Below the pieces are notes generated by a model. It did no database searches, was not told the origin of the DNA, and was given only the letters and a program-made list of their open reading frames with translations. Positions 8,238 through 57,761 of a DNA stretch of 57,761 bases are shown here, in pieces (positions within the stretch are counted from its first letter, which is position 1; each line of letters opens with the position of its first letter). This DNA comes from an uncultured bacterium (GTDB taxonomy: Bacteria; Latescibacterota; Latescibacteria; Latescibacterales; Latescibacteraceae), in NCBI GenBank assembly GCA_964456585.1, contig CAYWBT010000001.1, forward strand, positions 1-57,761. The letters are read 5' to 3'. The translations under genes were made by a program, and so were the position numbers.

Positions 8238-9150
8238 TTACCGCAAAACGCTCCATGTTATTTCGAAAAACAAGCTTATTTATTGCTTTCTGCATTGTTC
8301 ACCCATCGTTTCCGGAAAGTTGTATGCTGCTTTGAAGTAATTTAATTAAAAACTGCTATTTTATGTACTAAATCGATAGCTCCAATAATCTTTTTTTTCA
8401 TTGCAAAGCATCGCCTGCAGTGTCCATGCATCCCACATCATCTTCGAAACACCTATCCCATATTACCCTACAGAATTGTTTTGCGGGAATGACAAGTGGA
8501 GTGGAGAATACTATACTGAAGACTCGAGAATGTCAGCGAGCGAACCGTGATGTTTTCATCATAATTGTCTTTTGAAATTTCTCTCTCTTCTTCAATTACA
8601 ACCGAATTTCATTGTAGTTTATCCTTTCTTTTTTCATGCTCGTTTCTTATGTTTGAATGGTGATGCTGTCGTAATAAATTGAACCGACGACAACTCATGA
8701 ATACGTTTTTTCACGTTCTTGAAAAGCAGATACTAAGAACATGAAGTATTTCATGAGTTGATTCTTGTACCTGATCGCTTGTTGCCTTGCTATCATAAGC
8801 GAGGTCAGGCATACCTGCGAGAAAGAGCTCAGACACTTCAGGGGAAGCCAAGCACTCGAGATCAGATGAATCGAGAATAAGGCTATCGTCTATTCTTTAG
8901 GAGAGAACAATGTCAGCTCCTCGTGAGGCAACATTGAACCGACAATCAGCCCTGTTCTCGTCATGTGTATCTCCCCGGATGAATGCACCATTCCATCGGG
9001 ATTTACAACATAGTGTGTAAACGCCGAACTGGACTAAATACTGGCGCACGTATCTGTAATGAATGACTTTTCAAACCATATGCATTCATGATGCTGAAGC
9101 ATATGGTAGATGAATAAAGAAACAGCCACCCATAAAAAGTGTACATCTGA

Positions 9151-10833
9151 ATGAGAACAACGGCATTATTTCATATTATCCTGACATTCTTTGTCATTCA
9201 CGCATCACCTGCTGATTCCGCATCCTACTGGATCTTTTTCCATGACCGGGGAACGATCGATGTTGATCGTGCCGTTGCCGCAAAAATGGCATCGCCGGGC
9301 GAGCCGAAGTACGCGTGCAGACGGGCCCGCATCATGGGGCGTGAGCGTATTTTCGACGAGCGTGACCTCCCGGTCGATCCGTCCTATGCCGGTACGGTCC
9401 GGGACATCGCCGGCGGGCTCCGGACGGTGACCCGGTACCTGAACGGTGTTTCGGCGGAACTCGATGCGGACGCGCTTGAGCAGGTGCGGAGGCTTCCCTT
9501 TGTACGTGCGGTCATGCCGGTATCCCGGTTTATCCGTTCGCCGGAGCCGGCTGCACGTCCGGCGGTTGAGGAACGAGCGGCACTCTACTCGTACGGGAAC
9601 TCGTTCGATCAACTCAACATGATTAAGGTCATCGACCTGCACAAGATGGGATACTTCGGCAGCGAGATCAGGATCGCAGTGCTCGACAGCGGGTATGATG
9701 GTCTCGAACATACTGCCTTCGACAGCCTCACCGTTACAAACAAGCGGGACTTTGTCGATGGCGACGATGATCCTTCGGGAGACAGCCACGGCACCAAGGT
9801 GCTCTCGGTCATGGCGGCGCTGGACAACGGCAGGATGATCGGTGCTGCGCCCTATGCCACCTATCTGCTCGCCCGCACCGAGATCGTTCAAAATGACCAG
9901 GAACTTCCCATCGAGGAAGACTACTGGGTCAGCGGCATCGAATGGGCCGATAGTCTGGGGACCGACATTGTCTCTACCTCGCTGGGCTATACGACCTTCG
10001 ATGATGGCAGCGGCTACGAGTACGCGGATCTCGACGGGAACACGGCGGTGACCACCATCGCGGCGAACATTGCGGTCGAGCGGGGAATCGTCGTGGTCAC
10101 CTCGGCGGGAAACGAGGGAAGCAAAGACTGGTACTATGTCACCACACCGGCGGACGGTTTCGATGTTATCGCGGTCGGCGGAATCGACCGGAGCGGTGAG
10201 ATCGTTGCCTCGAGTTCACGCGGCCCGACCTATGACGGGAGAATAAAGCCCGATGTGGTCGCTCTCGGCCAGCAGGTTACCGTGGTCAATACTGCTTCTC
10301 GCGACTCCTACACGTCGGGGCAGGGCACATCCTATGCCGCGCCATCTGTCAGCGGAGCTGTCGCCCTCATCCTCGAGGCAAATCCCGCCTGGGGACCGCT
10401 TGAGGTAAAGGAGGCGTTGATCTCGACCGCCTCCCTCGGAAGAGACGGGGCAGATAACACCTACGGGTACGGTATTGTCAACGCGTTTGCGGCATCGGGA
10501 CTCGAAGAGCCTCAGCAGCCGGTGGCGAGGTTTTCCGCCCGCGATCCCTATCCGCAGCCGGTCAGGTTCAGCACCAGCACAAGCATGATCTACTTTCCGG
10601 TTGATCTGCCCACGGCGGGGACGGTTCTGATACACATCTACAACTTCGCCGGCGAGATGGTGAATGTCATCGAAACGAGCTTCCAAAGCGCCGGAAACAA
10701 GCACGACAAGATCGAGGCACCCCACTGGAACGGGACCAATTTCACCGGTGACGATGTCGCTCCGGGTATCTACTACTACACACTGAATTTCGGCAACGGG
10801 GTCAAGAAAGGTAAAATCGCGGTGATACAATGA
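9151..10833 (+). CDS. Secreted subtilisin-like (S8) serine protease with C-terminal T9SS/FlgD-Ig-type sorting domain
   Basis: 560-aa ORF with a signal peptide (MRTTALFHIILTFFVIHASPADS). Catalytic triad motifs are AVLDSGYD, HGTKVLS and GTSYAAPSVSG. The C-terminal ~75 aa (VLIHIYNFAGEMV ... WNGTNFTGDDVAPGIYYYTL ... KGKIAVIQ) match the T9SS C-terminal target / FlgD Ig-like pattern. Confidence 0.88.
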   Translation: MRTTALFHIILTFFVIHASPADSASYWIFFHDRGTIDVDRAVAAKMASPGEPKYACRRARIMGRERIFDERDLPVDPSYAGTVRDIAGGLRTVTRYLNGVSAELDADALEQVRRLPFVRAVMPVSRFIRSPEPAARPAVEERAALYSYGNSFDQLNMIKVIDLHKMGYFGSEIRIAVLDSGYDGLEHTAFDSLTVTNKRDFVDGDDDPSGDSHGTKVLSVMAALDNGRMIGAAPYATYLLARTEIVQNDQELPIEEDYWVSGIEWADSLGTDIVSTSLGYTTFDDGSGYEYADLDGNTAVTTIAANIAVERGIVVVTSAGNEGSKDWYYVTTPADGFDVIAVGGIDRSGEIVASSSRGPTYDGRIKPDVVALGQQVTVVNTASRDSYTSGQGTSYAAPSVSGAVALILEANPAWGPLEVKEALISTASLGRDGADNTYGYGIVNAFAASGLEEPQQPVARFSARDPYPQPVRFSTSTSMIYFPVDLPTAGTVLIHIYNFAGEMVNVIETSFQSAGNKHDKIEAPHWNGTNFTGDDVAPGIYYYTLNFGNGVKKGKIAVIQ

Positions 10834-55121: not shown

Positions 55122-55207
55122 GGAGGACTAGTCTAATTGGTAAGGCAGCGGACTTGAAATCCGCCGTGGTAAAACACTTCAGAGTTCGAGTCTCTGGTCC
55201 TCCGCCA
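55122..55207 (+). tRNA. tRNA-Ser (anticodon UGA), class II with long variable arm, CCA encoded
   Basis: Hand-folded cloverleaf. Acceptor GGAGGAC/GTCCTCC, D arm GTCT..AGGC, anticodon stem GCGGA/TCCGC with loop CTTGAAA (anticodon TGA), variable arm with GTG/CAC stem, T arm CAGAG-TTCGAGT-CTCTG, discriminator G, CCA. Confidence 0.85.
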
Positions 55208-55307
55208 AATAAACAACAGGGGCTTATAAAATATAGTATAATAACTATTATTAAGGGAGTGTGTATAATATTGTGAATAAAAAGGGAAAAAGAAAAGGAA
55301 AGAATAA

Positions 55308-55575
55308 TTAGATGTCTATAATTGCACCATGAGTATTGTTTCTGTGAACATAATATTTTTCGGTAACCATCACCGATGAGTGACCGAGAAAAGATTTTAC
55401 CGCATAGATATCTGCCTCGCTATCATTGATCGCCCAGGTCGCGAATGTATGACGGAGCGAGTGTAACTACTTGCGCTCGATGCCTGCCTCACGAAACCAC
55501 ATCATCGCCCACTTTGAAACCGTATCCGACGAACATACCATAAACTGCCGGTGACAAAGGCATTTCTCAACCATC
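55308..55575 (-). pseudogene. Tyrosine recombinase (phage-type integrase) C-terminal remnant
   Basis: The minus-strand translation reads ...KWAMMWFREAGIERK(stop)LHSLRHTFATWAINDSEADIYAVKSFLGHSSVMVTEKYYVH... It contains the H..R box, the GH box and the catalytic Tyr region. There is an internal TAG at 55467-55469 and no N-terminal half. It lies about 100 nt downstream of tRNA-Ser. Confidence 0.7.
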
Positions 55576-55582
55576 GAAAATA

Positions 55583-57277
55583 TTACATCTCATCAAGTCC
55601 TCTGGCAAGCTCGATCTGCCGCTTGTACATGAATTGAGTTATAAGCGAGCTGTCTTTTTCATCGACAAGTCTGAATTCGATTCCGTACATGAACTTCTGA
55701 TTTCCTCGCTGGGCAAAAACAAGGGGGGATGAGATGACATCTCCTTCGGGGAGTTCAAACCGTACCGCCATGCATTTTTTAACGGAAATCGGCTCCTCGG
55801 AAAAAATAATCATTCTCGTTCTGCTCAACTCAAGTATCTGGGCTTTGAATCGCTGTCCGGCATGCTGAATCGTGGGAACTGCCAGGGTAATTGGCAGAGG
55901 AACCTTGAGCGCCACGGAGAAGTTTTTTTGCGAGTGAAGGCTAACGGCATCTTCGCCGTATTTCACGTATAAGATATCGTTTTCCACATCAATCTCATGA
56001 ATTGATGTGTGATACTTTGTGGACAGACCAACCAAGGGATTGGCTAAATTGACCACAGTTTCAGGTACTAATTGAATTTTCTGGTTAAAAATAACCGGTG
56101 CTTGAATACCGATTATCTCTTCTGTCCTGAATTTACGACTATCGCTTTTTTTGCTGGTATAGGTAATTGTCGTATTGTCTATGAGGATTTCAACAATAAA
56201 TTCCGAAGGAATTTTGTAAGCTTCAGCAATGATATTTCGTGCCTTGTTTATGTTCTTGATATCCCGCGTTTGAGCTTCAGCAATAACCTTTTTAGACACC
56301 ACGCTGCTGAGGGCCTTGAGTATTTCTTCTCCCTTGCCCAACATCAAATTTGTTCCACAGTAACTGCAGTATCGCGCTTCAGGAGTATTGACAAACGTAC
56401 AGGTTAAACAGACATTGAGTTCGTTTTCCCCGTCATCTTTCTCCTGTTCACTTACTCCGGTAAAACTTTCAACTGCCTCGTGTATGGTAGAATATGTTTT
56501 AAACAGGTCGTTAATCTTGATATAGGTAAAACGATTATTCACCGATTTTTCGGGAAACGTCAGTCTCAACTCATACCCATTCGACTTGAGTGCTTCATTG
56601 GTGGAAATCAGCAATCCCAATCCGGCACTATCGATTTGTACAATGTGAGACGTGTCAAAAACGACTTTGTACCATCCATCGAAAATGATATTTGCAAATA
56701 TTCCCTGAATTATATGGATGTTTTCAATGGTAAAATTTCTGATGTACGACTTGATGATGGTAACGTCACCCTGGTGTTCAATCGATATCGAATCTCTCTG
56801 TGATGCAATTTTACCCGGAGAACCGTTGGTTGTTTCCTCTTTCTGGTTCTCGCCGACGTCTTCGGCATCACCTTTTTTTCTCCCTGCTATCTGACTGGCT
56901 CCTGTGACTCTTCGAATTCGCGTCAAAAGATCACTCGGTTGAAATGGTTTGACGATGTAATCCACTCCACCGGACTGAATAGCCTTTTTTAAATCCTCTT
57001 TCGATTTTTTCCCCGTTAAAAATATGACCGGGATATCTTTTGTTTGTACATTCCTCTTGATGACTTTGCATGTTATAAATCCGTCAAATCCCGGCATGTG
57101 AATATCGAGAATGACAATATCCGGCTTTTTCTCTTTAGCAAGCCGAATACCCTCTTTCCCGTCGGTCGCTTTGAAGACCTTAAACTCAGTATCCTTCAGT
57201 ATTCTTTCAACGAGGTATAGAATTTCAGTATTGTCATCAATGATTACCACTTTTTTCTTTTTTTGATTTTCACTCAT
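55583..57277 (-). CDS. Multidomain signalling protein: REC receiver + STAS + zinc ribbon + YcgR/PilZ-like C-terminal region (degenerate c-di-GMP motifs)
   Basis: 564-aa ORF. REC: VVIIDDN...PDIVILDIHMPGFDG...PVIFLTGK...DYIVKPF. STAS-like: GDVTIIKSY...VVFDTSHIVQIDSAGLGLLIS...GYELRLTF. Zinc ribbon: CLTC....CSYCG. C-terminus: a beta-rich region with PilZ-like spacing (ILELSRTRMIIFSEEP...AVRFELPEG...YGIEFRLV), but without recognisable RxxxR or DxSxxG motifs. Confidence 0.75.
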   Translation of the reverse strand: MSENQKKKKVVIIDDNTEILYLVERILKDTEFKVFKATDGKEGIRLAKEKKPDIVILDIHMPGFDGFITCKVIKRNVQTKDIPVIFLTGKKSKEDLKKAIQSGGVDYIVKPFQPSDLLTRIRRVTGASQIAGRKKGDAEDVGENQKEETTNGSPGKIASQRDSISIEHQGDVTIIKSYIRNFTIENIHIIQGIFANIIFDGWYKVVFDTSHIVQIDSAGLGLLISTNEALKSNGYELRLTFPEKSVNNRFTYIKINDLFKTYSTIHEAVESFTGVSEQEKDDGENELNVCLTCTFVNTPEARYCSYCGTNLMLGKGEEILKALSSVVSKKVIAEAQTRDIKNINKARNIIAEAYKIPSEFIVEILIDNTTITYTSKKSDSRKFRTEEIIGIQAPVIFNQKIQLVPETVVNLANPLVGLSTKYHTSIHEIDVENDILYVKYGEDAVSLHSQKNFSVALKVPLPITLAVPTIQHAGQRFKAQILELSRTRMIIFSEEPISVKKCMAVRFELPEGDVISSPLVFAQRGNQKFMYGIEFRLVDEKDSSLITQFMYKRQIELARGLDEM

Positions 57278-57587
57278 TTTCTTGCACCTGAATTAGTGAG
57301 AGCAACCGCGCTTGAAATATCATGCGCTTCTTCAAGAGGATTCACAAACGATTAACTCGAGTGTAGTATCCCGGTCGTTATTGCACACGGTACAGTCAGC
57401 AATAATCAGTGTTCATCCGGGATCCTAACTGGTTACTAAAAAAAAATCTTTATCGTTTCCAGCGGTTTTACACTCTTAACCGGCACTCTGTATCGTGCGT
57501 TGGAAAATTTCTCTGATAGACTAGTCATCGTCGACCACGAGTATATGGTTGTTTGTAGAAATCTGTTTATTCATATCACACGTCTCA

Positions 57588-57761
57588 TTACTTTTGATCC
57601 AGCACCTGACGGACAGTTTCAGCAAGTTTTTCTTTGTTTATCGGTTTCATTACAAATGCCCGGATTCCTTTCGATTTTGCCTGTTCTTCAGTAATCCTTT
57701 CACTGAAACCGGTGTTGATGATAATCGGGATATCAGGCCTTATATGCAAGAGTTTCTCGGC
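57588..57761 (-). CDS. C-terminal end of a response-regulator receiver domain protein (partial, runs off the window)
   Basis: The minus-strand translation AEKLLHIRPDIPIIINTGFSERITEEQAKSKGIRAFVMKPINKEKLAETVRQVLDQK(stop) matches the alpha4-beta5-alpha5 part of REC domains (conserved T/S and K-P). Confidence 0.7.
   Translation of the reverse strand, partial: AEKLLHIRPDIPIIINTGFSERITEEQAKSKGIRAFVMKPINKEKLAETVRQVLDQK

Follow-up and report, generated by a model that had tools for sequence, protein, structure and literature searches.

What does a response regulator do with a receptor fold for cyclic dimeric guanosine monophosphate (c-di-GMP) from which both ligand motifs have disappeared? The question is raised by a gene near the end of a stretch of DNA of 57,761 nucleotides (the window, meaning the whole stretch that was analysed; contig CAYWBT010000001.1 of GenBank assembly GCA_964456585.1) from an uncultured bacterium of the family Latescibacteraceae, phylum Latescibacterota. 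The product of this gene, called the target protein below, joins a phospho-receiver (REC), a STAS domain, a zinc ribbon and a two-barrel PilZNR-PilZ module whose second barrel is referred to as degenerate PilZ. The target gene is an intact, conserved and very rare response regulator. Its product may be an adaptor that binds other proteins under the control of phosphorylation and is blind to c-di-GMP; it would be the second response regulator in a mobile kinase/HD-GYP cassette and would perhaps act on motility. We give this reading about an even chance of being right. The gene and its parts are as follows.

55583..57277 (-): whole coding sequence of the REC-STAS-zinc ribbon-PilZNR-degenerate PilZ response regulator, 564 residues plus stop

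56906..57256 (-): REC receiver, residues 8-124 (Pfam, alignment, Foldseek)

56789..56905 (-): low-complexity linker, predicted to be disordered, residues 125-163 (predicted local distance difference test, pLDDT, 24-36; column identity 0.33)

56459..56788 (-): STAS domain of the SpoIIAA/anti-sigma-antagonist type, residues 164-273 (Pfam, solved relatives, residue counts)

56342..56416 (-): four-cysteine zinc ribbon, residues 288-312, CxxC-x10-CxxC (invariant cysteines, DZR in 32/34 members)

56228..56341 (-): helical connector, residues 313-350 (model helices 318-335 and 340-346)

55955..56227 (-): PilZNR-like N-terminal beta-barrel of a YcgR/MotI-type module, residues 351-441 (PF12945 in 17/34 members, hhalign, Foldseek)

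55898..55954 (-): inter-barrel linker, residues 442-460, '..LHSQKNFSVALKVP' (column identity 0.78, motif mapping)

55601..55897 (-): PilZ beta-barrel with C-terminal helix, residues 461-559 (Pfam, Foldseek, residue counts, hhalign)

The reading frame starts with ATG, is preceded by AGGTG about 9 nt upstream, and is intact over 564 codons. The Pfam scan placed REC (PF00072; residues 10-122, E 3.8e-29, 101.5 bits vs a cut-off of 30.2) and STAS (residues 185-268, E 1.4e-9, 38.1 bits vs 22.6) above their cut-offs, and the zinc ribbon (DZR, residues 290-311, E 0.006) and PilZ (residues 468-551, E 0.21, 12.4 bits vs 22.5) below them. NCBIfam recognised the receiver as the sole part of the protein, and neither a helix-turn-helix nor another known DNA-binding domain was found in the Pfam and NCBIfam scans. 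The family counts given here rest on an alignment of 34 sequences (A1); when each member was scanned with Pfam, REC was detected in 34/34, STAS in 34/34, DZR in 32/34, PilZNR (PF12945) in 17/34 (best E 1.3e-6) and PilZ in 9/34 (best E 1.7e-7). Judged by its residues, the receiver has the full catalytic set: D14, D15, D58 and K110 do not vary, position 88 is a conserved T/S, Y107 is conserved at 90 % or more, and the fold matches the CheY4, PhoB and RR468 receivers with a Foldseek template modelling (TM) score of about 0.9. The four cysteines C290, C293, C304 and C307, which form two CxxC knuckles, are invariant in the 34 homologues.

The AlphaFold model of the whole protein (mean pLDDT 83.2) shows, in order, the receiver, a disordered linker (130-161), the STAS fold, a small ribbon, two helices, barrel 1 (residues 360-439), barrel 2 (454-537) and a long C-terminal helix (540-559). 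When the full model was searched with Foldseek, receivers dominated the matches, among which MotI/DgrA of Bacillus subtilis stood out (5vx6, E 2.8e-10, 218 columns). A separate model of residues 314-564 (pLDDT 79) matched PilZ/YcgR-like two-domain proteins, namely MotI/DgrA (5vx6, E 1e-8, 220 columns), PlzD/VCA0042 (1yln, E 2e-6), MrkH (5kgo, E 1.6e-5), PP4397 (3kyf, E 1.5e-4), PlzA (7mie, E 2.2e-4) and YcgR (5y6f, E 7.3e-4), each match spanning 220-250 columns and thus both barrels. Single PilZ domains (MapZ, Alg44, CeSA, and also the PilZ domain of YcgR) gave Foldseek TM scores of 0.54-0.65. An earlier note, made from the sequence alone, had proposed that a receiver, a STAS domain, a zinc ribbon and a beta-rich, YcgR-like PilZ region follow one another in this gene, and every one of these parts was recovered in its place by Pfam, alignment, Foldseek and hhalign, the beta-rich region as strands within 360-537 closed by the terminal helix.

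The profile of the C-terminal module had no match among all PDB sequences (E > 0.5), and the homology with PilZ is therefore argued from Foldseek, from hhalign and from the Pfam counts across the family. When 1.84 billion representatives were searched exhaustively with the C-terminal profile, HMMER returned 51 matches at E <= 1e-3, of which the 16 at E <= 1e-30 are the target family or fragments of it. The nearest matches outside the family are PilZNR-PilZ proteins of about 220 residues and TPR fusions of about 415 residues, and these outside PilZNR-PilZ relatives keep an intact RRxxxR ('..QRRNFVR..') and '..DISGGG..'. Compared by hhalign with 14 canonical PilZNR-PilZ proteins (A4), the family profile (A3) was aligned over 204 columns with a probability of 99.5 % (E 5.4e-23). 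From this match we infer that the C-terminal module is a true, diverged descendant of the YcgR/MotI-type c-di-GMP receptors, with a PilZ-like N-terminal barrel directly before PilZ. Among the TPR-PilZNR-PilZ relatives of about 415 residues, domain scans covered P0152 and P0155, and the sequence of P0152 shows RRxxxR; P0162 was assigned to this type from its length and match region only.

According to a published survey, PilZ domains bind c-di-GMP through RxxxR and [D/N]xSxxG and are unable to bind it without these motifs, and some motif-less PilZ domains are thought to work via protein-protein interactions (10.1101/814665). In the target protein, hhalign aligned the canonical R-R-x-x-x-R to S449-Q450-K451-N452-F453-S454 and the canonical D-I-S-G-G-G to E483-L484-S485-R486-T487-R488, where the hydrophobic residue and the Ser alone are retained. 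An alternative one-residue shift, which pairs the 'NF' dipeptides, puts the two arginines on K451 and V455, so that still neither is kept, and Arg is absent from residues 442-462 altogether. The loss of both motifs, which had been read directly from the translation before, is thus confirmed by hhalign and residue counts, with SQKNFS and ELSRTR standing in their places. Both RxxxR arginines are gone in all 34 aligned members, as well as in the most divergent ones, P0038 ('SRKTFYV', 'EEISRQG') and P0133 ('STRFFTL', 'LEICRRG').

Linker 442-460 is the best-conserved block of the protein, with a mean column identity of 0.78 vs 0.76 for the receiver. Within the two replaced motifs, S449 and E483 are invariant, K451, N452, F453, S454, S485 and R486 are kept in >90 % of members, and R488 is kept in 88 %. 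Since the replaced segment is the best-conserved block, the former c-di-GMP site is judged to have been re-purposed, neither decayed nor abandoned. The degenerate PilZ module has probably lost the binding of c-di-GMP.

The family is small. A search of 5.8 billion protein clusters found about 38 full-length relatives with 34-53 % identity over 98-99 % of the length, and all other matches share the receiver alone. The full-length relatives all come from metagenomes or single-cell genomes; where names are given, these are 'Candidatus Latescibacteria/Latescibacterota' and, once, 'Anaerolineae'. When genome contigs were searched with a profile of the full-length alignment, receiver matches drowned out the rest and one true relative (L019) emerged; this search was replaced by a phylum-wide search with the C-terminal 285 residues and a metagenome scan with the C-terminal alignment. 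The former, covering 168 genomes of the phylum, found the target protein in 5/12 other genomes of the window organism's own family and in 0/155 genomes of the phylum's 13 other families. Copies within one genus are just 45-56 % identical in their C-terminal part.

On the upstream side of the target gene, two features were identified in the window.

57588..57761 (-): end of a hybrid histidine kinase of the multi-PAS type, comprising its C-terminal receiver and truncated where the contig stops (the kinases of L001, L002 and L006 are 47-56 % identical to it at their C-termini)

57446..57574 (-): relic of an RpfG-like REC-HD-GYP gene, its first ~43 codons with two in-frame stops, between the kinase and the target gene

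The relic (130 nt) reads MNKQISTNNHILVVDDD, stop, SIREIFQRTIQSAG, stop, ECKTAGNDKD; L006 and L001 carry intact REC-HD-GYP genes whose N-termini share 51-56 % identity with it. The gene orders around the other members are given below.

L001: hybrid PAS kinase, REC-HD-GYP, target

L115: hybrid PAS kinase, REC-HD-GYP, target, DDE transposase

L130 (same genus, G022): kinase, REC, hybrid kinase, REC-HD-GYP, target, SBP-PAS hybrid kinase

L112: kinase, REC, REC, HD-GYP, target

L005: kinase, REC, HD-GYP, target, REC

L004: target, kinase, REC, HD-GYP

L006: methyl-accepting chemotaxis protein (MCP), CheA, CheB, hybrid kinase, REC and HD-GYP as two open reading frames (ORFs), REC, target

L007 (same genus, G021): kinase, REC, REC, HD-GYP, HDOD, REC, zinc-ribbon protein, FIST, target, CheX

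L133 (G011, most divergent member): kinase, REC-REC, hybrid kinase, REC, HD-GYP, REC, target, insertion sequence (IS) transposase

L002: kinase only

P0038 locus: no signalling genes nearby

With the window counted, 11/12 loci have a histidine kinase beside the target gene, and 10/12 have an HD-GYP gene or what is left of one. The earlier note mentioned neither this HD-GYP partner nor its relic in the window, nor the island setting described below. All HD_5 proteins inspected carry HD, HHE and GYP. This linkage with a kinase and an HD-GYP gene spans the full depth of the family (25-57 % identity in the C-terminal part) and is the strongest functional clue. It also bears on the neighbouring gene that the earlier note had described as ending in a receiver domain and had tentatively connected with the target gene: that gene is the hybrid histidine kinase at the contig end, and the connection is supported by the synteny. 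Chemotaxis genes (CheA, CheB, MCP, CheX, CheB-CheR) flank three loci. In L006, which belongs to a single-cell genome, REC and HD-GYP were called as two ORFs (8561-9575) and are fused in L001, L115 and L130; the split could be a frameshift or an assembly error.

The mechanism that we propose starts from a three-part cassette: first comes the hybrid histidine kinase with its several PAS domains, next the c-di-GMP phosphodiesterase of RpfG-like REC-HD-GYP type, and then the target protein. The kinase would phosphorylate D58; the receiver would then change the exposure of the STAS and degenerate PilZ surfaces; finally, SQKNFS / ELSRxR, once the c-di-GMP site, would dock together with the basic C-terminal helix on a partner, most likely the motility apparatus or an HD-GYP/GGDEF complex. 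Compared with YcgR/MotI, phosphorylation would replace c-di-GMP as the trigger, and the output would be protein binding, neither an enzyme activity nor DNA binding. A motility or c-di-GMP-linked role is plausible, because the window organism's genome encodes FliG, as does every holder genome that is at least 80 % complete, together with 4 GGDEF genes, at least 8 regions matching HD_5 and 3 canonical PilZ genes.

Several points weigh against this adaptor reading. The YcgR-like fold is shared by the transcription factor MrkH and the nucleic-acid binder PlzA, so that the fold does not fix what the protein binds, and the conserved R486 and R488 could make an alternative ligand pocket. Most loci have no adjacent flagellar or pilus gene, and most family genomes without the target gene are also flagellate, which makes co-occurrence non-discriminating. 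In the window, the HD-GYP partner has decayed and the cassette is not intact. The reading also gives the STAS domain and the zinc ribbon no role beyond that of an 'interaction surface'.

The closest known systems are MotI/DgrA (YpfA), from Bacillus subtilis, and YcgR, from Escherichia coli, which serve as a brake or clutch of the flagellum and have the PilZNR/PilZN-PilZ organisation. The target protein shares with them the two-barrel module and the C-terminal helix, MotI/DgrA is its best structural match, and the window organism is flagellate. It differs in that RRxxxR and DxSxxG are replaced, so a c-di-GMP trigger would not be expected, and in that the module, which stands alone in MotI/YcgR, follows REC, STAS and a zinc ribbon in one polypeptide. 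MotI and YcgR bind the flagellar motor; by analogy, such binding is a candidate activity of the target protein.

A second parallel is the RpfC/RpfG/PilZ (XC_2249) system of Xanthomonas, in which a hybrid kinase likewise works together with an HD-GYP response regulator and with a protein of the PilZ type. A Xanthomonas PilZ protein works on pilus motors by protein contact without needing c-di-GMP (PMC3749722). The RpfC/RpfG-type cassette is present in the relatives; in the window, the kinase is truncated and HD-GYP is a relic. Unlike in Xanthomonas, the PilZ-type protein has its own receiver, STAS and zinc ribbon and is encoded within the same cassette; moreover, there is no sequence relation past the domain level, and a GGDEF bridge is not evident here.

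Receiver and PilZ are also found in one polypeptide in REC-PilZ regulators. The survey of PilZ fusions lists direct REC-PilZ fusions and does not list a STAS-PilZ combination (10.1101/814665). No description of a REC-STAS or a STAS plus PilZ combination, or of the REC-STAS-zinc ribbon-PilZ architecture, was found in the literature searched, in agreement with the earlier note, which knew of no characterised example; that literature likewise had no account of a ligand site replaced by conserved residues in this way or of a fixed kinase/HD-GYP linkage. Each of the domain types is familiar, and both degenerate PilZ adaptors and REC-PilZ fusions have precedents; it is the combination that is new.

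How motif-less PilZ domains are controlled is mostly unclear, and the target protein offers a concrete example in which phosphorylation and c-di-GMP signalling may be wired in parallel onto one output: a lost ligand site has been swapped for an equally conserved sequence, under a phospho-receiver, beside a c-di-GMP phosphodiesterase with the same kind of kinase. It is conceivable, though rather unlikely, that a motility brake of the YcgR/MotI type was rewired to receiver phosphorylation via STAS and the zinc ribbon, or that the SQKNFS / ELSRxR pocket was retuned to another ligand. If this were true, either way the family would represent a PilZ lineage whose input logic is new and which has spread within a mobile cassette of kinase, HD-GYP protein and effector. 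Its practical value is limited, as the family is very small and restricted to an uncultured lineage.

In one alternative to the adaptor reading, the degenerate PilZ might still be a small-molecule receptor, in which SQKNFS / ELSRxR binds c-di-GMP non-canonically, or another messenger turned over by the neighbouring HD-GYP, and the target protein would then integrate phosphorylation with a second messenger. The high conservation of the former site, the most conserved part of the protein (0.78), with its invariant S449 and E483 and its near-invariant K451, N452, F453, S454, S485, R486 and R488, would fit a binding pocket, as would the HD-GYP gene, catalytically intact by its motifs, that is nearly always adjacent, and a genome which by gene content (4 GGDEF genes) makes c-di-GMP. 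However, no member retains either RxxxR arginine, the second motif is altered by D-to-E and G-to-R changes, and a precedent was not found. We regard this explanation as unlikely.

The earlier note had suggested a node between two-component phosphorylation and either partner switching or motility/secretion control. In classical partner switching, the STAS domain would be an anti-sigma-factor antagonist that binds an RsbW/SpoIIAB-type kinase, with the receiver setting the timing instead of, or besides, Ser phosphorylation. Its nearest solved relatives by sequence are indeed the Thermotoga anti-sigma antagonists TM1081 (E 1e-7) and TM1442 (E 7e-5), and 'IDS217AGLG' of the target protein aligns with 'MDSAGLG' of TM1442. 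The Ser that follows Asp in this motif (S217 here) corresponds to the phosphorylated Ser58 of SpoIIAA, so the window copy carries Ser at the presumed phospho-site; the domain is also the only STAS match in the window organism's 94 %-complete genome. Across the family, however, position 217 is Gly in 29/34 members, Ser in 4/34 (the window copy included) and Asn in 1/34; P0133 has Ala there. Genes for sigma factors, anti-sigma kinases and PP2C phosphatases are absent from all 12 neighbourhoods, and HATPase_c_2 (RsbW-type) has no match above the Pfam cut-off in the window organism's genome.

The lone candidate for a STAS kinase in this genome is an RsbT/RsbW-like ORF of 106 residues, with 26 bits vs a cut-off of 27.4, on the 1.6-kb contig C397, where it overlaps a PP2C (SpoIIE-type) phosphatase gene that is followed by a PAS protein (C397:158-1235, locus L122). 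The pairing of such a small kinase with a PP2C phosphatase speaks for partner switching, but C397 begins 157 bp upstream of this ORF, and because of this the kinase's own STAS partner may lie in the assembly gap. The target STAS belongs to the same subfamily as SpoIIAA/RsbV, and, as in YtvA (LOV-STAS) and RsbR, a sensory or input domain lies N-terminal to it. Unlike in SpoIIAA/RsbV, the phospho-Ser is not conserved and neither an RsbW/RsbT kinase, nor PP2C, nor a sigma factor is encoded in the neighbourhoods; unlike in SpoIIAA/RsbV, YtvA and RsbR, the STAS domain is internal, with about 290 residues after it. Partner switching would also leave the conserved degenerate PilZ module without a role. 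Because the phospho-Ser is mostly Gly, the sigma and anti-sigma neighbours are missing and the genome has no clear RsbW-type kinase, partner switching is poorly supported; it is not a trait of the family, this half of the suggested role was not supported, and for the window copy it is conceivable but quite unlikely. In genome G011, at least four STAS-domain ORFs are clustered at C8:570479-573731, about 13 kb from its target-family copy.

It is very unlikely that the target protein is a nucleic-acid-binding regulator, in which the zinc ribbon and the YcgR-like module bind DNA or RNA in the manner of MrkH and PlzA under the control of the receiver. The presence of MrkH (E 1.6e-5) and PlzA (E 2.2e-4) among the Foldseek matches, the invariant zinc ribbon and the basic C-terminal helix (YKRQIELAKG) would suit this explanation. 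On the other hand, MotI/DgrA and PlzD outscore both of these proteins in Foldseek, and the Pfam and NCBIfam scans found no known DNA-binding domain. In addition, according to passages of PMC9915621 and to PDB titles, MrkH and PlzA require c-di-GMP for binding, and the c-di-GMP site is lost here.

The adaptor reading includes a mobile cassette, and the composition of the window bears on this part. The last 2.5 kb of the window have a guanine plus cytosine (GC) content of 41.6 % vs 52.4 % for the genome, which places them in the lowest 1 % of 2-kb windows. Two further features lie at this end.

55122..55207 (+): tRNA-Ser(UGA) at the left edge of the low-GC island, which probably integrated here (ARAGORN)

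55308..55466 (-): C-terminal relic of a tyrosine recombinase (..HSLRHTFATW..LGHSSVMVTEKYYVH), a stop-to-stop frame recognised by motif reading and not by a hidden Markov model

Between these two features (55122-55466) and the contig end, the GC content falls from ~52 % to ~41 %. Since the tRNA-Ser and the recombinase relic stand where the GC content drops, 55122-55466 is the edge of a degraded genomic island. That the window copy is a functionless passenger of this decaying island, in this genome only, is highly improbable: it is flanked by an integrase relic and an HD-GYP relic and lies in a low-GC region next to a tRNA gene, but its 564-codon frame is unbroken, it retains all 42 family-invariant residues, and it deviates, mostly conservatively, in 10/125 highly conserved columns (family range 0-30), and on these invariant residues and within-range deviations a decay of the copy was rejected.

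A shared tRNA-Ser integration site was sought in the relatives and not found; L004 alone has a tRNA-Ser, with another anticodon and on the opposite side of the cassette. In L001, the cassette has a GC content of 42-49 % vs 55-60 % in its flanks, and the L115 cassette is likewise GC-poor relative to its flanks. Transposases abut the cassette in L115, L133, L002 and the P0038 locus, which is consistent with its low GC content and patchy spread. The DDE, rve and Y1 transposase genes are located at 9365-10597 in L115, 7289-8179 in L133 and 4859-5302 in L002.

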